A stretch of 63,585 bases of DNA, counting the filler. It is 6 parts of 6 records of this genome, joined end to end, with 100 filler letters (N's around TTAATTAATTAA, not from the genome) between each part and the next. Parts side by side here need not be neighbours in the genome. Positions count along the whole stretch, not along the records: positions 32,797 to 42,413 come from SRR20825010_2546; 5 more parts are not named here. The stretch is one strand, 5' to 3'. This document shows positions 32,797 through 42,413 of this stretch, one piece after another (the stretch's first letter is position 1; every line of letters starts with the position of its first letter). The notes below the pieces were generated by a model. It had not been told where the DNA came from, searched no databases, and saw nothing but the letters and a program-made list of their open reading frames with translations. Position numbers and translations under genes: made by a program.

Positions 32797-34305
32797 CCGC
32801 ACTACCCACACACCGAGCGCAAGGAAGAAACCAAAACCTGCAGCGATTGCCACTTGTCACGCGAGGATGACAACAATGCCATCATGGCCCAACTGCTGTT
32901 GCAAGGTACCAACTTCGTGAACTTCATCGGCTTCAATGCATGGCTGGGCGGCACGGAACACATTGCAGCAGTCACCGTGACGGAATGGGACGAACCCCAA
33001 ACCGTCTTGGGCAGTTACCTGCACAAGTACGCCTACCCCGATTATTACCAAAACCACTTGAACCGCGACCGTGAACTGGCTGACACCGTGGTGCCAGCCC
33101 TGATGGACCACACCACCAAAGGCGTGGCAAGTTGCATTCAACTTCGCGGCGAATACGTGTTTGTGGCCGAGGGCAAAGGTGGTTTCCGCGCCTACGATGC
33201 CGCCAGCGTGGCCAACAAGGGCTTCGGTCAGCGGGTTATTACCGCACCGTTTAGCCCGCTGGGCCAAGACACCCATGTGGCGACGAAAAACGCCACCTGC
33301 ATGGCTTTGCCCACCAACCAACCCATCAACCCCGAGAAAAACCAGGGCGACCTGATGCGCATTACCAATATGGAACAGCCCTTCCACCCCATTTACAACT
33401 ACGCCTTTGTCACCGACAGTGAAGAAGGCCTGATTGCAGTGAATGTGAACACCCTGGCCGATGGCGAGCCACGCAACAACTTCTTTGAACGCGCTGTGAC
33501 CTGGAATGAAAACGGTGTTTTGAATGGGGCAAGCCACATTACATTGGGTGGGCACTACGCCTACATCACCACGCCCAAAGGGCTGGTGTTTGTCGACATC
33601 AACAACCCCTTGAAGCCGCGCCACATCACCACCCTGCCCTTGCAGAATGCACGCGCCACAGCGGTGCAATTCCGCTACCTGTTTGCCACCACAGGCAAAG
33701 GGTTGGAAGTGATTGACATTACCCACCCGGAGAAGCCTGAACACACAGGCGCAGTGGTACCCATGGCGGATGCGCAACGCGTTTATCTGGCCCGCACCTA
33801 TGCCTATGTGGCTGCAAAAAAACAGGGCGTGGTGATTGTAGACATTGAGCGCCCACGCAAGCCCGTGGTGTATCAACAATTTACTGCTGACGGCCAACTG
33901 AATGACGCGCATGATGTGGTGGTGGGCTCCACCAACGCATCGCTGTTCGCGTATGTGGCCGACGGTGTAAATGGTTTGAAGGTGTTGCAATTAACATCGC
34001 CGGACACGCAGCCAAAGTTCTATGGCTTCTCGCCTGCGCCCATGCCTGAATTGATCGCCTGGCGCAAAACGCCAAGCCCGGCGTTGTCGGTGTCGAAAGG
34101 TTTGGATCGCGACCGTGCCGTGGATGAAACAGGCGGGCAGATTGCCGTGTTTGGTCGCATTGGATCGCGCCCATTCACCCGCAAGGAAATGGAAGCGTTT
34201 TACCTGCGCCCGGATGGCCGATTGTGGACAGTGACCGACAAGGTTGAAAAGGAAAACTACTTGCCCAAGCCCAAAGTGAATTCAGTGGCTTTCAGAAAGG
34301 ATTAA
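32797..34305 (+). CDS. LVIVD-repeat beta-propeller protein carrying c-type heme motif(s) (5' truncated)
   Basis: Frame open from the contig start: PHYPHT...KTCSDCH (CXXCH), then repeated YAYxA..GLxxxDIxxPxxP units. Confidence 0.85.
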   Translation, partial: PHYPHTERKEETKTCSDCHLSREDDNNAIMAQLLLQGTNFVNFIGFNAWLGGTEHIAAVTVTEWDEPQTVLGSYLHKYAYPDYYQNHLNRDRELADTVVPALMDHTTKGVASCIQLRGEYVFVAEGKGGFRAYDAASVANKGFGQRVITAPFSPLGQDTHVATKNATCMALPTNQPINPEKNQGDLMRITNMEQPFHPIYNYAFVTDSEEGLIAVNVNTLADGEPRNNFFERAVTWNENGVLNGASHITLGGHYAYITTPKGLVFVDINNPLKPRHITTLPLQNARATAVQFRYLFATTGKGLEVIDITHPEKPEHTGAVVPMADAQRVYLARTYAYVAAKKQGVVIVDIERPRKPVVYQQFTADGQLNDAHDVVVGSTNASLFAYVADGVNGLKVLQLTSPDTQPKFYGFSPAPMPELIAWRKTPSPALSVSKGLDRDRAVDETGGQIAVFGRIGSRPFTRKEMEAFYLRPDGRLWTVTDKVEKENYLPKPKVNSVAFRKD

Positions 34306-34308
34306 GCC

Positions 34309-35658
34309 ATGAAAGCAAATGCCTTGAACCGACTCTGCAACCGCGTATTGTTTAAGCTGTGCGTAACCTTGGTGCTGGCTGTGCCCACGGCCAGCATGGC
34401 GCAAACCATGCCGCACCAGTCACTCCACCAATCGGTGGGCACGGTGAACTGCGCCAGCAGTACCTGCCACGGCAGCATTGCTGAACGCACCGCCACGCCA
34501 GTTCTGCAAAACGAATACACCACTTGGCTGCGTGAAGACCCGCACACCCAAGCCTATGCCGTGTTGAAGAATTCACAATCGCAACGCATTGCGAAAAACC
34601 TGGGGCTTGCACAGCCTGCACATGAAGCCAAGGTTTGCCTGGATTGCCACAGTCACAATGTGCCTGCCAGCAAGCAAGGCCCACGCTTTGACAAAAGCGA
34701 TGGCATTAATTGCGAAGCCTGCCACGGCCCGGCCGAAAAATGGATTAAAACCCACGTAGAGCCCAAAGCCAGCCATGCGAAAAACATTGAAAATGGCCTG
34801 TACCCCACCAACGACCCCTATGCCGCAGCCAAACTGTGCACCAGCTGCCATGTGGGCGATTCAAGCCGCCCGATTACCCACCAAATTATGGGCGCAGGCC
34901 ACCCACGCATTTCCATTGAAGTTGAAACCTTCATGGCCTTGGAGCCCCCGCATTACAAAATTGACGAAGATTGGGTTCAGCGCAAAGGTGCCTACGATGC
35001 CGGGAAAATCTGGGCCATGGGTCAGTTTGCAAGCAGTGCCAATTTGCTGGAATTGATTGCCGACCCCAAGCGAAATCGCCAAGGCATCATGCCCGAACTG
35101 ATGATGTTCGACTGCCACGCCTGCCATTCACCGATGAGCAAAAAAGACTGGTCCAAAGACCTGGCCCGCAGCCCCGGGCAGGCCCGCATCAACAACTCCA
35201 GCCTCATCATGGTTCAGGCTATTGTTCGCGCCGCTGCACCACAACACAGCAGCGATATCGCCAAACTGGTGAACCAATTGCACATTGCAAGCACCTCGCC
35301 AGCAGCCAATATGAACGAAGTTGAACGCGCAGCAAATGTACTGCACGCGCAACTGAACACGGTGCGCAAAGTGGTGGCCACGGTGCCATTCAATGAACGG
35401 GTACTGGAGAAAATCCTGAAAGACCTGGTGAACATGGCGGCTGGAAACCAGTACGCGGATTTTGCTGGTGCCGAACAAGCCTACATGTCGATCAGCAGTG
35501 TGGCCAACGGTTTGGCCCGCAAAGGAAATTCACGCATTGCGCAAACCGTGAATTCGAAAATGGACCGTTTACTGAAATTGCTCAGCAACGATGAAGCTTA
35601 TGACCGCGAAGCATTTCAATCCGAACTGCTGGCTTTGAAAGCCGCGGTGGGAGGTTAA
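34309..35658 (+). CDS. Periplasmic multiheme cytochrome c (c554-like) with helical C-terminal extension
   Basis: Signal peptide; CASSTCH (CX4CH), CLDCH, CEACH, CTSCH, CHACH. Confidence 0.9.
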   Translation: MKANALNRLCNRVLFKLCVTLVLAVPTASMAQTMPHQSLHQSVGTVNCASSTCHGSIAERTATPVLQNEYTTWLREDPHTQAYAVLKNSQSQRIAKNLGLAQPAHEAKVCLDCHSHNVPASKQGPRFDKSDGINCEACHGPAEKWIKTHVEPKASHAKNIENGLYPTNDPYAAAKLCTSCHVGDSSRPITHQIMGAGHPRISIEVETFMALEPPHYKIDEDWVQRKGAYDAGKIWAMGQFASSANLLELIADPKRNRQGIMPELMMFDCHACHSPMSKKDWSKDLARSPGQARINNSSLIMVQAIVRAAAPQHSSDIAKLVNQLHIASTSPAANMNEVERAANVLHAQLNTVRKVVATVPFNERVLEKILKDLVNMAAGNQYADFAGAEQAYMSISSVANGLARKGNSRIAQTVNSKMDRLLKLLSNDEAYDREAFQSELLALKAAVGG

Positions 35659-35661
35659 ACC

Positions 35662-38124
35662 ATGCAAGAAAATATCAAACCCATGTTCGCCGATGTACCG
35701 GCTGAACTTGACATTGCCATCGTGGGCTCCGGCCCCGCGGGCTTGTCTGCTGCCTCACGCGCACAAACACTTGGATGCAACTATGTGTTGTTCGAGGGTG
35801 AAAACCATGCCTCTGACACCATTTACAAGTACCAGAAGGGCAAGCATGTCATGGCCGAACCCGGCTTCCTGCCTTTGCGCAGCGGCATGCCATTTGAAGC
35901 AGGCAAGCGCGAACACATTCTGGGTACCTGGGACAAACAGCTGGCTGATCAGCGCGTCAACATTCAATACAAAAAGAAAGTGGCCACCATCAAGAAGCTG
36001 AACGATGGTGCCGGGCCTTTCGAACTGGAATGTGAAGACGGCAGCAAAACCACCGCACGCACGGTCATTCTAGGCATCGGCCTGCAGGGTAATATTCGGA
36101 AAATTGGCACCGATGGCGACGATCTGCCCAATGTGCAATACACACTGAGCGACCCCGATGAATTTCAAAATGAAACCATCATCGTGATTGGCGCAGGCGA
36201 TGCAGCAATTGAAAACGCCTTGGGCTTGATGCGCAAAAACAAGGTGTTTCTGGTGAACCGTCGCGAAGAATTTGCGCGCTGCAAGGAAGGCAATTTGAGC
36301 CAGATCCTGGCGGCCGACACCAATGAAGATGTGAAAATTTTGTACAACACCAGCACCCTTCGCATCGAAGAAATTGCAGATGCAAAGGACGGTGAACCTT
36401 GCATGAACTACGTGTTCAAAGGCCCTGAAGGTGAACAAACCATACCTGTACACCGAATTATTGCGCGCTTGGGAGCCACCCCACCCCGCACGTTGGTGGA
36501 AAGTTTTGGTGTGCAGTTTCCAAACAGCGACCCCAGCGCTGTGCCTGCCTTGTCTGAAAGTTATGAATCGAATGTGCCGGGTTTGTTCATTGTAGGTGCC
36601 TTGGGCGGCTACCCGCTGATTAAACAGGCCATGAACCAGGGCTACGAGGTAGTGGACACCATCATGGGCTTGCCCGTGGTACCTGCAGATGAGCCGCTGC
36701 TGGCGACCAAGTTCAAGCCGCTGGGTGATCGAAGTGTGTCGGAAGTGCTCGATTTGATTTTGAACAACGTACCGATTTTCTCGGGCATTACCAAGTTGCA
36801 GCTGCGCGAATTCATGCTGGAATCCGATTTGCTCAAACTTTCCAAAGGGCAAATCGTTTTCAGAAAAAATGATTACACCAGCACTTTCTTTTCCATCGTG
36901 GAAGGTTCAGTTGATATTGACCTGGTGGGCAAAGATGGCAAACCCATGGTCATCAACCTGAGCAAAGGCAACTACTTTGGTGAAATGGGCTTGATCAGTG
37001 GCAGACGCAGAACCGCCACCATTCGTGCAGGCGAAGGTTGCGTGCTGGTTGAAACACCCCGCAAAGCCATGCTGAAGCTGATTGCATCGGTTGAAAGTGT
37101 ACGCAAAACCATTGATGAAACGTTTGTACGCCGGGCCATTTCAACCTACCTGGCACCACCTTTGGACAACGCCGCCATTGATGAACTGCTGAGTGATGGC
37201 ATTGATGTACGCCGCTATGCCAAGGGCGAGGTCCTGTTCAAAGATGGCGACGCCGCCGATGGTTTGTATTTGATTCGCCGTGGATCTGTAACGATCTCGA
37301 AAATGATCAAGGAAAAAGACGTAGTGTTGTCGTATGTATCAGCGGGCAACTACGTGGGTGAAATGGCCTTGCTGAACAACAATCCACGTTCAGCCACGGT
37401 AACCGCCTCGGTGTTCACAGAAGCCCTTGTGCTGCCTGTTGCGCCCGTGCAGCGCGTGCTGGCGGCCAATCCCGACTGGAAGGCTGTGTTGCAGGCTCAA
37501 GCCAGCAAGCGGGTAAAAAACAATGTGTTCCGTGAAGACGAGGCCTTCCGTGACACTGACCTGATCCGCTTTCTGATGAACGAGGGCTTGGGCGAAGCAA
37601 CCGATGCGCTGATCATCGATGAAAGCCTGTGCGTGCAATGTGACAACTGCGAAACTGCGTGTGCAGACACCCACGGTGGCACATCCCGCCTGGACCGAAG
37701 TGCCGGCCCTACTTTCCAGAACATTCACATCCCCACATCGTGCCGCCATTGCGAACACCCGCACTGCATGAAAGACTGTCCACCGGATGCCATTCGACGC
37801 AATGAAAGCGGTGAAGTGATGATTGCAGATTCCTGCATTGGCTGCGGCAACTGCGAGCGCAATTGCCCCTATGGCGTTATTCAAATGGCAGTGAAAGCGC
37901 CACCCAAAAAAGGAAATATGCTGACATGGCTGTTATTTGGCCTGGGCGACAAACCCGGCGAGCGCGAAGCCGCTTACGACCCCAATGCCATCAAGAAAGC
38001 AGTGAAATGTGACATGTGTGCCGGCAGCAGTGGTGGCCCAGCCTGCGTACGCGCCTGCCCCACGGGTGCAGCCATTCGAATTTCACCCGAAAAGTACCTG
38101 GTCAGGCAAAGCGAATTGAGTTGA
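35662..38124 (+). CDS. Fusion: FAD/NADPH oxidoreductase (TrxB/YpdA-like) + 2 cNMP-binding domains + 4x[4Fe-4S] ferredoxin
   Basis: GSGPAG, GAGDAA, NRR; FGEMGL..RTAT and VGEMAL..RSAT; CVQCDNCETAC, CRHCEHPHCMKDCP, CIGCGNCERNCP, CDMC..CVRACP. Confidence 0.92.
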   Translation: MQENIKPMFADVPAELDIAIVGSGPAGLSAASRAQTLGCNYVLFEGENHASDTIYKYQKGKHVMAEPGFLPLRSGMPFEAGKREHILGTWDKQLADQRVNIQYKKKVATIKKLNDGAGPFELECEDGSKTTARTVILGIGLQGNIRKIGTDGDDLPNVQYTLSDPDEFQNETIIVIGAGDAAIENALGLMRKNKVFLVNRREEFARCKEGNLSQILAADTNEDVKILYNTSTLRIEEIADAKDGEPCMNYVFKGPEGEQTIPVHRIIARLGATPPRTLVESFGVQFPNSDPSAVPALSESYESNVPGLFIVGALGGYPLIKQAMNQGYEVVDTIMGLPVVPADEPLLATKFKPLGDRSVSEVLDLILNNVPIFSGITKLQLREFMLESDLLKLSKGQIVFRKNDYTSTFFSIVEGSVDIDLVGKDGKPMVINLSKGNYFGEMGLISGRRRTATIRAGEGCVLVETPRKAMLKLIASVESVRKTIDETFVRRAISTYLAPPLDNAAIDELLSDGIDVRRYAKGEVLFKDGDAADGLYLIRRGSVTISKMIKEKDVVLSYVSAGNYVGEMALLNNNPRSATVTASVFTEALVLPVAPVQRVLAANPDWKAVLQAQASKRVKNNVFREDEAFRDTDLIRFLMNEGLGEATDALIIDESLCVQCDNCETACADTHGGTSRLDRSAGPTFQNIHIPTSCRHCEHPHCMKDCPPDAIRRNESGEVMIADSCIGCGNCERNCPYGVIQMAVKAPPKKGNMLTWLLFGLGDKPGEREAAYDPNAIKKAVKCDMCAGSSGGPACVRACPTGAAIRISPEKYLVRQSELS

Positions 38125-40389
38125 TTACTTCGTGTCGAACTGCGTCACGCCATCCCAAGTTTCGGGTGGAGGATTTGCCTGAAAATAGTCGATCCGGCTT
38201 TCATACAGCGCACGCAAAGTCGGGTTCACAACTTCATTGGTTTCCAGACTGTTCAAAGCCGCTTTGGCATCAGCCCACTGCTGTGCACGAAACGCATTCA
38301 ACATCGCGTGCCATTTTCCAGCGCACTCAAAAGTGCTTTCAGCCAACGCGTTGCGCTCGCCCAAGGGTGCGTAAATCGACACTGGTTCGTTCTTGCCTTT
38401 CACCTTCACGGCATCCAGCTCTTGAAACAACATGCCAGACACCGCCATTTTGGTATGAGGTCCTACAATCACGCCAACGCCGTAGGTTTTTGTAATGCCT
38501 TCAAGCCGCGAACCCAGGTTCACCGCATCACCCATGACCGTGTACGCACGGCGAATTTTCGAACCCATGTCACCCACGCGCATTTGACCCGTGTTAACAC
38601 CGACACCGATCGCCAGTTTGGGCCAGTCGCGGGCCATAAACTTTGCATTCAGGCGCACGGCTTCTTCCTGCATGGCAATGGCCGCCTTGGTTGCCAGTTC
38701 AGCATGTTCCGCATCGGCAATGGGTGCCCCCCAAAACGCCATAATGGCGTCGCCGATGTATTTGTCCAAAGTACCGCGGTGTTCGCGAATAATTTCAGAC
38801 ATCACCGTGAGGTATTCATTGATGTATTCGCGCAGTTCGTTGGGCTGCAGCGTTTCAGAAATGGTGGTGAACCCGCGAACATCCGAGAACAGCACGGTAA
38901 GTTCCCTGCTTTCCCCTTCCATGGAATAGCGCTTTGGGTCAAGCGCCATTTCGGTCACCAGTTCTGGTGCCACGTACTCGCCAAACAGGTTCACCATCTG
39001 CTTTTTACTTCGCGATTCCGCAAGGTAACCATAAGCCACATCGAACACAACAATGGCCAACACCAGCAGCAACACCACTGCCACAGGCAGCACCACCCCT
39101 GCCTGAAAATACAGCAGCGAATTGATGGCGACGCTGGCCACCAAAATACCCAATGCCACCAGCAACGACCAAATCGCGCTGAGAATGGGCATCATCACGC
39201 TGAGCACCACACCTACAACCAACACAGAGATGAACAGAAGCCCCTGGGAATATTCCGGGCGCAACTTGTAAACACTGTCCAACATACCGCTGATCACATT
39301 GGCATGCACTTCAACGCCAGGATAAGCCGGGTTCACAGGTGTGCTTCGCAAATCAAGCAAACCGGGGGCAGTGGTGCCAATCAACACAATACGGCCTTCA
39401 ATGTCTTCAGGTTTCAGTGCACCGGCCAGCACATCCGCAGCGGAAACATACCGATATCCGCCACCCTTTGGCCCCCCCTTGGCCCTGAAATTTACACGGG
39501 TCAACAGACCGCGCTCAACAGGAATATCCAATTCAACGTCTGGCGAACGCAAGGCGATCATCTCAACCGCACCGTAATCATCGTCGACACCTTCCGGAAA
39601 CACCGGAATAACCTGCGGATTGCCCAAAGCACGCCGAAGGGTACCCAGCGCAAAGCTTTGGTAGTAAGCATCGTTGAATTGGGCCAGCAAAGGAATGGAG
39701 CGCACAGTACCGTCTTCATCAACCATGGGGTTGAAATATCCGCCATCTGCATGGCGTTGCAACACAGGTATATTGCCGCCGTAGCCTTGCCAATTGGTGC
39801 TGTCCAATTGAAGTGTGCCAAGTTGGCTTTTCTTGAAAATGGCAGGTGGCAACGCCCCCGACAAGGCCGTTGAATCCTGATTCAGGTAATAACCCAACAC
39901 CACGGGGCGTTCTGCCAATACTTTCGCCAATTGGGCATCGCGGTCAAATTGCCGGGCAATTTCGGCTTTCAGACCTTGCAATTCACTTTTCAGGCCGGGC
40001 TTGCTTTGAACAATCGAGTCAAAGGCCTGCAGGGCATCGCTTTGCTGGGGCTCTGCAAACACAATATCGAAACCCACTGCGGCTGCGCCCAGTTTGTCGG
40101 TCAACTCGACAATCAGCTTTGCAACCACATCGCGAGACCAAGGCCAGCGCCCTACTTCAGCAAGACTTTTCTCATCAATGTCGACAATGACAATTCGGGG
40201 ATCCATTTCGGGCTTCTGTGCCTCTGCGCGCAAGCGCACGTCATACACCAGATAATCCAGGCGCTTGACTACATCCGATGGCACAAAACCCAACACGTGC
40301 AACAAGGCAATCGCGGTGAAAGAGAACCCCACTCCAATTCGGAATGCCTTGCCAGCCACGCGTCTCCACGACTTGAACAATATCCTCAT
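38125..40389 (-). CDS. CHASE2-domain class III adenylyl cyclase
   Basis: IVDIDEKSL..GRWPWSR CHASE2, PGVEVHA, three TMs, FSDVRGFT, DKYIGDAIM, YTVMGDAVNLGSRLE. Confidence 0.95.
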   Translation of the reverse strand: MRILFKSWRRVAGKAFRIGVGFSFTAIALLHVLGFVPSDVVKRLDYLVYDVRLRAEAQKPEMDPRIVIVDIDEKSLAEVGRWPWSRDVVAKLIVELTDKLGAAAVGFDIVFAEPQQSDALQAFDSIVQSKPGLKSELQGLKAEIARQFDRDAQLAKVLAERPVVLGYYLNQDSTALSGALPPAIFKKSQLGTLQLDSTNWQGYGGNIPVLQRHADGGYFNPMVDEDGTVRSIPLLAQFNDAYYQSFALGTLRRALGNPQVIPVFPEGVDDDYGAVEMIALRSPDVELDIPVERGLLTRVNFRAKGGPKGGGYRYVSAADVLAGALKPEDIEGRIVLIGTTAPGLLDLRSTPVNPAYPGVEVHANVISGMLDSVYKLRPEYSQGLLFISVLVVGVVLSVMMPILSAIWSLLVALGILVASVAINSLLYFQAGVVLPVAVVLLLVLAIVVFDVAYGYLAESRSKKQMVNLFGEYVAPELVTEMALDPKRYSMEGESRELTVLFSDVRGFTTISETLQPNELREYINEYLTVMSEIIREHRGTLDKYIGDAIMAFWGAPIADAEHAELATKAAIAMQEEAVRLNAKFMARDWPKLAIGVGVNTGQMRVGDMGSKIRRAYTVMGDAVNLGSRLEGITKTYGVGVIVGPHTKMAVSGMLFQELDAVKVKGKNEPVSIYAPLGERNALAESTFECAGKWHAMLNAFRAQQWADAKAALNSLETNEVVNPTLRALYESRIDYFQANPPPETWDGVTQFDTK

Positions 40390-40405
40390 GCCAGATCAGT
40401 TCTCA

Positions 40406-41878
40406 TCATGGTGCACATTGGGGCGCCGCAAACGGTGGCGATGCCAGTGTGTTGTCTTTAACAATGACGTCAGGTGGTGAGGTCAGCAATTGGGGCGGCA
40501 AGTTGCTCAGCGTTTGTACAAAAGCACCCTCCCCCCTATTCACCTCAAGCGGATCCTGATTGGAATTGGAGATAACAATGACACCGTCATTCACAGCCAC
40601 AAACAGCTGCGAATTTTCATCAGAACCACCATCTTGTTGAAGCGACTGCACTGGCGTTGACGACAATGTTTCAAAGTTGGCCGGTGTGTTTTCAGGCAAA
40701 GGCCCAGAGTTGGGTACATTTCCCAGCACATTCGGCAGCGAATTAAGCACCTGAATATTCACGCTGCCAGCAGGAATAATCGCAGACTGCCCAGCGTTGA
40801 TAATAGAATTCACTCCGCCAGATGTCACGATCAGTTGCCCGTTTCGCAACTCAACCGTCAGGTTTGACGAACCAGAACACACCACCAAACTGCCTGCTTG
40901 GGATGTACACGACACATCCAATGCGGTTCCCCGAATACCCACAGTGGCAGTTTCAGTGAAAAACTTCACGTTGTTCGGTTCTGCCTTTGCGATGGCACCA
41001 GTGACCGCCCGCACAGCACCTTTGAGCAACTTGAACGAAGCCACTGATGTTTGTGGCGAGGCAGATGCATAGCGATAAGCAGCCACCTGCATACTGCTGC
41101 CGCCGGGCAAGGTTAATCGGGTGGAATCAGCCATGCTGAGTACCGCAAAACCACTTTCAGCCACTTCAACAGTGTCACCGGCAAACACAGCCGAACCCTT
41201 TTGCAAGGATCGGCGTTTCCCCTCCGGGGAAATGGAAAAAGTTTCACCAGTCAGCTGGGAAACGCGCCCGGCAACGTCGGCATTGGATGTGTTGGTAACA
41301 GTGGCTTTGTCAGACTCGCCTTTGGCCAAACGCGTACATTCATCACCTTTGCACAAACGCGCAGTGAAGTCGGTACCCCGAATACCAATGGTGGCGGTTT
41401 CACTTTTCAGTGAAAATGCATCGGCGCTGCCACGCTTGCCGATCAGACCTGTCAAAGTGCGCAATCCGCCCTTGACGAGCTTGAACTCGGCCTTGTCCGC
41501 AATGGGTTGCTCTGGTTGATACTCGTAATTCTCAACCACGAAGCGTGTATTGGGGCGCAAAGCCACTTGCGTGGTGTCGACAAATTCCAGCACGGTTGTG
41601 CTTTTGGCCTGGGTGTTGATGATGTCGCCGACATTCAGCTTGGTGCCTGCCCCGGCGAATTTGTTTTTTCCATCGGCGGTTTGCAGGTTCACCAATCCTG
41701 TGACCACCTTGATCATTCCCACGGAAGGTTTGCCAGATTGGTCAGCTGCTTGAGCCACATTCGGCATCAGGTCTTTGGCTTGAACGTTCTGCGCCACTAC
41801 CGGGCTACACACCCCCAACGAAAGCGCCATCAACGACACGCTGAACAATGAGCGAATACCAAGGATTGAGTTGTACAT
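40406..41878 (-). CDS. Exported protein with tandem FecR-like domains
   Basis: Signal peptide; two repeats ending TATIGIRGTDF and TATVGIRGTAL; no sigma-binding N-domain; start could also be 41899. Confidence 0.82.
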   Translation of the reverse strand: MYNSILGIRSLFSVSLMALSLGVCSPVVAQNVQAKDLMPNVAQAADQSGKPSVGMIKVVTGLVNLQTADGKNKFAGAGTKLNVGDIINTQAKSTTVLEFVDTTQVALRPNTRFVVENYEYQPEQPIADKAEFKLVKGGLRTLTGLIGKRGSADAFSLKSETATIGIRGTDFTARLCKGDECTRLAKGESDKATVTNTSNADVAGRVSQLTGETFSISPEGKRRSLQKGSAVFAGDTVEVAESGFAVLSMADSTRLTLPGGSSMQVAAYRYASASPQTSVASFKLLKGAVRAVTGAIAKAEPNNVKFFTETATVGIRGTALDVSCTSQAGSLVVCSGSSNLTVELRNGQLIVTSGGVNSIINAGQSAIIPAGSVNIQVLNSLPNVLGNVPNSGPLPENTPANFETLSSTPVQSLQQDGGSDENSQLFVAVNDGVIVISNSNQDPLEVNRGEGAFVQTLSNLPPQLLTSPPDVIVKDNTLASPPFAAPQCAP

Positions 41879-41889
41879 GTCGGCGGCCC

Positions 41890-42411
41890 TCATTTGCACA
41901 CCGCCGAAGCGCGTTGGGGATCACTTTGCGTGCTTTGAAGCTCAATGTCACCGGACTGCTGGGAAACAGTAGTGCCTGCTGTACTTTGGTTGGCCGCTTC
42001 CACTGCCTGCTCTTCCTCGGTGGATGTTGTGGTGCTTGAACTGGTGGTGCTGGATGACTGCGTAGTGGTTGTGCTGGTTGGGGTAGTGAATGCCTGGTCC
42101 AGGTTCTGGTTGATCGTTGAGGTGCTGGTGGTACCCGTGCTGCCCGTTGCGATGGTGCCGGAACTGGCCTGCGCAATGGTGCTGGTGCTCAACTGCTGAA
42201 TTGAGCCCAAGGTGTTGACCACCGGATCCGTAAACGAATACCCCAAACCTGTGTTCAGTTTGGACACACTGCCAAAAACGCCATTGATGGAACTGGCTTC
42301 CAGGAAGGCATATTGATTGCCGCTGCCCAGATTGCCGCCAGAAATATCGATCAAATTCAATTGACCCGCCAGGTTGGCAATGCCATTGACAACAATGCAG
42401 TCAAAATCAAC
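41890..42411 (-). CDS. C-terminal fragment of a filamentous-haemagglutinin/passenger-like surface protein
   Basis: Open frame from the contig edge (VDFDCIVVNGIANLAGQL), Gly/Asn beta-helix-like segment, Ser/Thr-rich linker, ends SAVCK. Confidence 0.6.
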   Translation of the reverse strand, partial: VDFDCIVVNGIANLAGQLNLIDISGGNLGSGNQYAFLEASSINGVFGSVSKLNTGLGYSFTDPVVNTLGSIQQLSTSTIAQASSGTIATGSTGTTSTSTINQNLDQAFTTPTSTTTTQSSSTTSSSTTTSTEEEQAVEAANQSTAGTTVSQQSGDIELQSTQSDPQRASAVCK

Positions 42412-42413
42412 AC

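Follow-up and report, generated by a model that had tools for sequence, protein, structure and literature searches.

The described systems closest to the locus studied here are two gene clusters. The ptdABCDEFG cluster (Elbon et al., bioRxiv 10.1101/2023.11.21.568154) includes an Fe-S gene with a cyclic nucleotide monophosphate (cNMP)-binding domain, and its function is called unknown in the accessible sections of the preprint. In PCC4 (He et al. 2017, PMC5566968), a membrane protein with an HX13H motif spaced as in the FRD domain was described, again with the function given as unknown in the accessible text. We analysed a stretch of DNA of 63,585 nucleotides (the window), in which positions 32797-42413 hold part of a redox operon encoding a fusion enzyme, here called FUS, and, facing it, an operon with a CHASE2 class III adenylyl cyclase. 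As far as the texts on ptd and PCC4 go, the redox operon shares with them a FAD/NAD(P) oxidoreductase, a cNMP-domain Fe-S protein, a ferric-reductase-like membrane protein with two WX3HX13H motifs, a decahaem and a tetrahaem cytochrome. The original prediction, made from the letters of this locus, knew of no characterised system with its architecture. Our literature search found no functional study of the redox cluster, which does however appear, described bioinformatically, as PCC4 and ptd.

We propose that this cluster transfers electrons from NADPH across the inner membrane to the periplasm and is gated by a cyclic nucleotide, with FUS as the cytoplasmic head and 3',5'-cyclic AMP (cAMP) as the most likely ligand; we assign this reading a probability of about 0.55. 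Domains, cofactor motifs, gene order and co-occurrence were taken from sequence; ligand binding, gating, the preference for NADPH, the direction of flow, the final acceptor and the sequence in which the periplasmic carriers act are inferred. In bacteria, the main targets of cAMP are regulators of the CRP type and channels, along with a small number of enzymes. If the proposal is true, an electron-transfer chain gated directly by cAMP would be a new kind of cAMP output.

The window consists of six contigs of different organisms (GC content 0.38 to 0.66) joined by N44-TTAATTAATTAA-N44 spacers, and genes on opposite sides of a spacer are unrelated. Positions 32797-42413 are exactly one Limnobacter contig of 9,617 bp, cut at both ends (Table 1). 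Its closest relatives are Limnobacter, with 95% identity to locus L003 and 83% to L. humi, and it is absent from the nearest genome examined, G001. Neighbouring redox genes on the plus strand are separated by 3-nt gaps, and the stop codons of FUS and the cyclase abut with zero bases between them. Gene coordinates thus bear out the tight LVIVD-cytochrome-fusion operon originally proposed, as well as the haemagglutinin-like, tandem FecR and CHASE2 cyclase operon converging on it. The membrane component and the TpsB transporter, which had been suspected to lie beyond the contig ends, are both present in relatives. FUS is carried by 23 of 26 Limnobacter genomes, and in 19 of these 23 it abuts the cyclase gene. 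The junction is no assembly artefact, because it recurs in these 19 genomes and is spanned by a public contig, perhaps from the source sample, that covers the whole 9.6-kb stretch in one piece with 75 differences. No terminator was found at the junction (13 terminator-like matches in the scan, against 14.6 expected by chance), and promoter and terminator scans of the stretch gave chance-level results only.

Table 1. Features of the Limnobacter contig, in window coordinates.
Feature	Position	Strand	Evidence
Secreted LVIVD decahaem-propeller protein (about 1300 aa when complete); 502 aa of its C-terminus, with the LVIVD beta-propeller and the last haem motif	32797..34305	+	PF08309 E 7e-20; CSDCH; 5' open
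Periplasmic cytochrome c, 449 aa, 4 CxxCH and 1 CxxxxCH	34309..35658	+	PF13435; motifs; N-terminal hydrophobic stretch
FUS fusion, 820 aa	35662..38124	+	Pfam and NCBIfam; conservation; PDB sequence matches; model and fold search
CHASE2 class III adenylyl cyclase	38125..40389	-	PF05226 E 1e-59; PF00211 E 1e-20; four hydrophobic stretches
Tandem-FecR exported protein	40406..41899	-	PF04773, 2 stretches; N-terminal hydrophobic stretch
TpsA-like (haemagglutinin-like) protein, C-terminal 173 aa, cut by contig end	41890..42413	-	90% identity to end of L003 protein

FUS reads as a cytoplasmic fusion of a TrxR-fold FAD/NAD(P)H module, two cNMP-binding domains and a HycB/DmsB-type 4x[4Fe-4S] domain. 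Matches to Pyr_redox_3 (E 9e-30) and to two cNMP_binding domains (E 4e-40), together with 16 cysteines in four groups that are invariant in 78/78 aligned homologues, agree with the FAD/NADPH-cNMP-cNMP-4x[4Fe-4S] fusion first proposed; no transmembrane stretch was found in the protein. In the flavin module, an invariant Asn-Arg comes after a GxGxxA motif, a pattern that we take to be of the NADPH type. In fold, the FUS model was closest to YpdA/Bdr and to ferredoxin-NADP+ reductases of the TrxR type (TM-scores on the target of 0.77 for 7apr and 0.65 for 3ab1), and the best PDB sequence matches were PKG/PKA regulatory domains and HycB subunits (7z0s_B, 7qv7). FUS modules fold like those of YpdA/Bdr, TrxR-type reductases and HycB, but in none of these do tandem cNMP domains separate the flavin from the ferredoxin part, and among the fold and PDB matches no solved structure joins the flavin and HycB-like modules. 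The model had a pTM of 0.58 and does not fix the relative placement of the domains. Assignment to thioredoxin reductase (TrxB) was rejected, as CxxC is absent, there are no paired cysteines before residue 657 and TIGR01292 scored 73.9 bits against a cut-off of 343; membership in YpdA/Bdr was rejected at 102.7 bits against the TIGR04018 cut-off of 339.9, despite the best fold match.

Both cNMP domains contain the phosphate-binding cassette G-E...R-x-A of the CAP family. The pocket residues G440/E441/R450 and G566/E567/R576 are kept in 77-78 of 78 FUS homologues, while the mean share of the top residue across the cNMP domains is only 0.62-0.66. Such near-invariance indicates that both pockets are under strong selection, as judged from the alignment; judging by these residues, either cAMP or cGMP could be the ligand. 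Pocket A also contains an invariant RRR at residues 448-450. Within the Fe-S domain, a conserved hydrophobic WLLFG segment (residues 752-762) could dock on the membrane.

From the relatives, the complete redox operon has seven genes in the order MEM, decahaem, HbpS-like lipoprotein, barrel-like protein, LVIVD decahaem, 4+1-haem cytochrome and FUS. MEM, the membrane protein, lies outside the window and was identified in relatives (G002-G004). It is a five-helix protein of 271 aa with two WX3HX13H motifs in 83/83 full-length sequences, and is predicted to be a di-haem-b membrane protein holding two b-haems; its SGxxG motif reads T/SGxxG in Limnobacter. In G442 and G464, a single open frame encodes FUS together with MEM. 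These open frames and the paired motifs, conserved in 83/83 sequences, support a proposed direct path from Fe-S clusters to haem b.

The membrane-anchored decahaem has 10 CxxCH motifs in L088, L090 and L092; it is without an FHA domain in Limnobacter, whereas most decahaems elsewhere carry a cytoplasmic FHA-like domain. The LVIVD propeller had been described as haem-bearing, which it is, but not as a single-haem protein would be: in L003 the full protein has 1301 aa and 10 CxxCH, of which only one falls inside the window. Similarly, four CxxCH motifs of the supposed five-haem cytochrome are regular, and the fifth haem depends on an atypical CxxxxCH that is retained in 51/53 homologues. This cytochrome had no PDB match and is 40% identical to a protein with four CxxCH motifs in the ptd-type cluster of G248, making it the likely counterpart of PtdD. 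The decahaem-propeller protein is 62-85% identical across orders and its haems are widely spaced. Its model (pLDDT 62.6) folds only in the propeller part and matched only generic propellers (Z 30), and its haem part had zero PDB sequence matches and Atlas neighbours that were all uncharacterised; because of this we make no catalytic assignment. The barrel-like protein resembles alginate-export channels by its features and matched no NCBIfam family at E 1e-4. Tentatively, these features suggest to us a periplasmic enzyme supplied by way of a channel more than a wire of the Mtr type. An MtrCAB/PioAB conduit was rejected on the missing NCBIfam family of the barrel-like protein and on a TIGR03508 score of the window cytochrome of 23 versus 192 bits.

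We compared the complete operon with G248, which is ptd-type by description only. Identities to the Limnobacter proteins were 52% for FUS, 33% for MEM, 29% for the decahaem and 40% for the tetrahaem cytochrome. PtdC and PtdE, separate in ptd, are fused as FUS here, and the HbpS-like lipoprotein, another barrel-like protein and the LVIVD decahaem, which showed no similarity to pentahaem PtdA and porin PtdB as represented in G248, seem to stand in their place. The pentahaem PtdA with its C-terminal beta-sandwich is absent from the complete Limnobacter operon, none of whose proteins matched the 587-aa pentahaem of G248, and blastp gave no match between the Limnobacter barrel-like protein and the porin candidate of G248. 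Because four genes are common to both but the outer module differs, the redox cluster appears to be a variant of ptd/PCC4 and not a strict member. A Tenderiales LVIVD gene considered as a counterpart proved to be an unrelated gene in the passages concerned. By its description in the accessible part of a preprint (bioRxiv 10.64898/2026.01.22.701106), a trio of FHA-nonahaem, five-helix membrane and 4Fe-4S proteins in Ferrigenium straubiae has the same inner core; it has no outer module, and 'cNMP' and 'cyclic' occur 0 times in the preprint text. A Gallionellaceae locus (L069) has FUS-MEM-FHA-haem, like this trio. In about ten alphaproteobacterial loci (L148, L211-L214, L216-L221) the fetched stretch contains only FUS-MEM-decahaem-phosphodiesterase. 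The inner core of FUS, MEM and decahaem may work alone there, with the outer four genes absent or elsewhere.

In the proposed chain, electrons would pass from NADPH to FAD, through the four [4Fe-4S] clusters to the two b-haems of MEM, and from MEM to the membrane-anchored periplasmic decahaem, the 4/5-haem cytochrome and the decahaem-propeller protein, with the HbpS-like lipoprotein and the outer-membrane barrel working alongside the periplasmic haem carriers. The cyclic nucleotide would control FUS allosterically. It would come as cAMP from envelope-sensing CHASE2 cyclases in FecR/TpsAB or CHAT/TpsAB modules, adjacent in some lineages and remote in others, and a phosphodiesterase in or beside the operon would shape the signal. 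A second messenger may in this way switch the electron flow of the cluster. NOX5/DUOX and ferric reductases carry electrons from NADPH through FAD and two b-haems across the membrane, under second-messenger control. The likeness is one of working and not of membership: here the flavin module has the TrxR fold and not the FNR fold, an Fe-S relay is interposed, the messenger would be a cNMP and not Ca2+, and c-type haems are the likely acceptor. More tentatively, and at somewhat less than even odds in our estimate, the system could be a NOX-like export chain of aerobic proteobacteria, in which a TpsA/FecR/CHASE2 module senses surface contact or damage, local cAMP, bound by the tandem cNMP domains of FUS, opens the flow of NADPH electrons through the di-haem-b membrane protein into a 25-haem periplasmic assembly that ends in a new catalytic decahaem-propeller enzyme, a phosphodiesterase encoded in the operon shuts it off, and unrelated cyclases were recruited at least five times.

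The window cyclase is predicted to be a membrane-bound CHASE2 adenylyl cyclase, in line with the class III cyclase originally proposed, as it keeps the adenylyl residue set D, K, D, T, N, R at the metal, adenine and transition-state positions. In relatives, the facing operon reads from its far end cNMP-patatin, PDEase_II, TpsB, TpsA (1785 aa), tandem FecR and CHASE2 cyclase. The 173-aa fragment in the window had no useful Pfam match of its own, and is 90% identical to the C-terminus of the 1785-aa protein with a PF05860 TPS domain in L003; TpsA/TpsB pairs (PF05860 with PF03865/PF08479) were found in L003, L089 and L091, outside the window. Combinations of a CHASE2 class III cyclase, FecR and a phosphodiesterase at one locus are known from the clusters of Mo et al. 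(2022, PMC9239204) and from CyaD1/SpdA/Clr of S. meliloti (PMC4222275), in which, as far as those texts were accessible, the effector identified is a regulator of the CRP type. In the present locus an electron-transfer enzyme and the cNMP-patatin are the candidates for this role, and TpsA/TpsB belong to the module.

The cluster is widespread: at least 586 stretches with FUS relatives were present among species-representative genomes, and the best 80 loci were analysed, with genes in high-GC loci mapped by tblastn and hidden Markov models (HMM). As lower bounds, limited by short contigs and 10-kb flanks, neighbours in these 80 comprised the decahaem in 57, LVIVD in 50, the HbpS-like lipoprotein in 49, the barrel-like protein in 48, MEM in 47 and the small cytochrome in 31. 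For linkage we used evenly drawn samples: 401 genomes of the phylum, 13 of which have FUS (12 besides the centre); 351 genomes of Burkholderiales; and 221 genomes of one alphaproteobacterial order, which 65% matches to Sphingobium suggest to be Sphingomonadales. In the phylum sample, a class III cyclase lay within 26 kb of FUS in 8 of the 12 genomes, with 0.5 expected, and was the sole one found in three; these are not eight independent events, since 7 of the 12 genomes come from one order. FUS and a CHASE2 cyclase occurred together in 44 of the 221 genomes of the alphaproteobacterial order, against 4 with FUS only, 5 with the cyclase only and 168 with neither. The two genes lay within 30 kb in 26 of these double carriers, far apart on one replicon in 6 and on different contigs in 12. 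Three of the 44 were weak matches (about 30% identity), leaving 41 strict orthologues; among the 7 FUS genomes of the order without one, 5 had another CHASE2 cyclase within 30 kb. These samples overturned our candidate view that the cyclase link is specific to Limnobacter. A PF00211 search found a class III cyclase somewhere in the genome in 19/19, 20/21, 12/12 and 4/4 non-Limnobacter FUS genomes (one genome searched twice).

The linked cyclases fall into at least five separate clades (quick tree, 186 columns), are 27-36% identical to that of the window, map to four separate parts of the FUS tree and, except in G716, retain every one of the adenylyl residues. G086, G133 and G029, which form the sister group of Limnobacter in the FUS tree, have an unrelated CHAT-CHASE2-cyclase-TpsB module that runs towards FUS from the opposite side, and G248 and L052 are two further cyclase-linked cases. 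In Sphingobium herbicidovorans MH (NZ_CP020539.1, B6S01_RS18380-18455), genes for Crp, CHAT, CHASE2 cyclase, TpsB and a TpsA-like protein and the outer four genes run in one direction and face FUS-MEM-decahaem-phosphodiesterase. At 21 of the 23 loci examined in the alphaproteobacterial order, the gene immediately behind the decahaem encodes a class III phosphodiesterase, and at the remaining 2 this gene comes immediately behind the linked cyclase; the best-80 and Burkholderiales loci yielded none. The enzyme is Rv0805/SpdA/CpdA-like, with Rv0805 as the best PDB match (E 3e-24). Linkage is not universal, but it recurs in several separate lineages; the neighbourhood search suggested by the original prediction did find cyclases and phosphodiesterases beside the cluster repeatedly. 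Our literature search, with most subscription papers beyond its reach, found no report of this repeated recruitment and no study of cyclic-nucleotide control of the cluster, which itself was already catalogued; the word 'cyclase' is absent from the ptd preprint, as is 'cyclic' from He et al. Linkage to cyclases and phosphodiesterases offers a handle on the likely ligand and the likely signal source and makes the cluster directly testable, and the whole set is present in two cultured strains, Limnobacter humi NBRC 111650 (L006) and Sphingobium herbicidovorans MH. In G750 (L152:5164-8002), a GAF-GAF-PAS class III cyclase and then a PycTM (Pycsar effector-like) membrane gene lie beside the cluster.

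Several results weigh against our proposal. Among the closest relatives, redox operons are usually unlinked, the outcome that the original prediction had named as speaking against it: a local HMM search found a cyclase within the fetched flanks at 1 of 76 non-Limnobacter loci. Of those genomes 50, mostly with longer contigs and including the known positive L052, were searched further; 29 had CHASE2 and 21 had none, and CHASE2 lay within 30 kb of FUS in 2, against 1.3 expected. Two clades of the FUS tree, that of Lysobacterales and the other one of Burkholderiales, show no linkage to a cyclase. FUS was present in 21 Burkholderiales genomes, an orthologue of the window cyclase in 158 and both in 15 (uncorrected p 0.02); the 143 others have the cyclase without FUS, and in the 12 non-Limnobacter double carriers with a listed position the two genes are non-adjacent. 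As a phylogenetic control, RpoB sequences of 39 genomes picked by hand, out of 40 tried, were placed on a tree; both traits need 10 changes on it, and the cyclase-only genomes fall in one clade. Of the 7 independent pairs that it yielded, 5.3 were concordant and 0 opposite (median p of the sign test 0.0625). This control points the same way as linkage, yet is not significant (p about 0.06), and co-loss would also result from losing one linked block. With one query, no FHA-decahaem was found in the five cyclase-only genomes. The class III phosphodiesterase scored below the NCBIfam cut-offs (SpdA 134-141 of 400 bits, CpdA 66-97 of 225). In the accessible text of PMC4222275, the specificity of such enzymes is held to be unreadable from sequence, and SpdA-type phosphodiesterases may act on 2',3'-cNMP. 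RNA data comprised a single run with the stretch, in 8 short pieces, too thin to serve as evidence of transcription.

In one alternative, the Limnobacter juxtaposition is inherited chance: the cyclase operon would be a self-contained envelope-signalling module with the cNMP-patatin as its effector, and FUS, still gated by a ligand, would respond to the cell's overall pool of cAMP/cGMP or to something else. The operon carries its own class II phosphodiesterase and its own candidate effector, and because of these and of the 143 of 158 orthologues without FUS, it is not a dedicated signal source. It remains a plausible cAMP source, probably a shared one, because it would also serve the cNMP-patatin. 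Clusters of CHASE2 cyclase, phosphodiesterase and FecR are known and mobile between genomes, according to the accessible text of PMC9239204. The four linked genomes among 19 of Burkholderiales represent two events, against 1.75 genomes expected, and two exceptions within Limnobacter fit chance as well, G013 with its operons apart and G018 with a split. G014 and G020 are fragmentary. We judge this alternative unlikely; against it, the sister clade has a CHASE2 cyclase/TpsB module of unrelated origin that meets FUS at the same place, and non-orthologous replacement of the cyclase is also seen in the alphaproteobacterial order. In G018 (L094, L095), MEM still faces the cyclase, with the rest elsewhere and a class II phosphodiesterase 87 nt behind FUS, a position that we count in favour of our proposal; either rearrangement or an assembly error would account for the split. 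Identities to the window are discordant between FUS and cyclase, at 74% versus 85% in G006, G008, G010, G011 and G015 and 94% versus 85% in G009, which suggests recombination between the two Limnobacter operons.

A coupling in another sense, with the redox chain reporting the periplasmic state into cAMP or with cAMP-CRP driving the operon and the cNMP domains playing a minor part, seems improbable to us. In its favour, a redox-responsive cyclase, CyaC, is known (PMC10463352, as far as accessible), most decahaems have a cytoplasmic FHA-like domain, and a Crp/Fnr gene precedes the cyclase module in S. herbicidovorans; that is, however, the one record among all loci examined with a Crp gene beside the cluster. 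CRP-like boxes (at most 2 mismatches) were present in 9/34 upstream regions against about 2.5 in shuffles, but they had no common position and came from related sequences, and Clr-like and FNR boxes upstream were at chance level. The invariant pocket residues argue instead for direct binding. We consider it very unlikely that electrons move inward, with FUS making NADPH from the oxidation of extracellular Fe(II), Mn(II) or humics, though He et al. (2017, PMC5566968) model PCC4 in this direction in the accessible text and, in the accessible part of the Ferrigenium preprint (bioRxiv 10.64898/2026.01.22.701106), the proposal is that the FHA-nonahaem trio couples the oxidation of Fe(II) to quinone. 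The carriers include Limnobacter, Tahibacter, Rudaea and Alcanivorax, which are aerobic heterotrophs; TrxR-type ferredoxin-NADP+ reductases are reversible, but reduction of NADP+ from c-type haems would be uphill. The alginate-export-like barrel, outside any NCBIfam family, also stands against uptake, as does the decahaem-propeller protein, whose conservation across orders and distant haems suggest an enzyme more than a wire.

Other genes recur around the cluster. Genes for cytochrome c maturation (ccm, CcmH/CycH-TPR) flank it, usually divergent from the first gene (L088:8451-15389, L090:5862-10329, L143, L152). Upstream of MEM in L088, L090, L092 and partly L095, ahead of the Limnobacter redox operon, there is a conserved element, GGATACTAACA-N-CGTAACATT, in which TAACA recurs at a distance of about 22 nt; the element may be a regulator site or an extracytoplasmic function (ECF)-type promoter. 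In the window, the contig at 26211-32360 carries genes of the iron-uptake type (ECF sigma factor, FecR, TonB-dependent receptor, ATP-binding cassette genes) and is unrelated to the redox/cyclase locus despite the shared FecR. A gene for NADP-specific glutamate dehydrogenase is found near the cluster in 12 plus 3 more loci (L142:3124-4476, L102:6218-7585, L052, L043, L080 and others) that span alpha-, beta- and gammaproteobacterial lineages, and this proximity hints at a tie to NADPH/nitrogen balance. In the Lysobacterales loci (L029-L081), ispG and a conserved gene of about 580 aa lie upstream of FUS in 16-17 loci.

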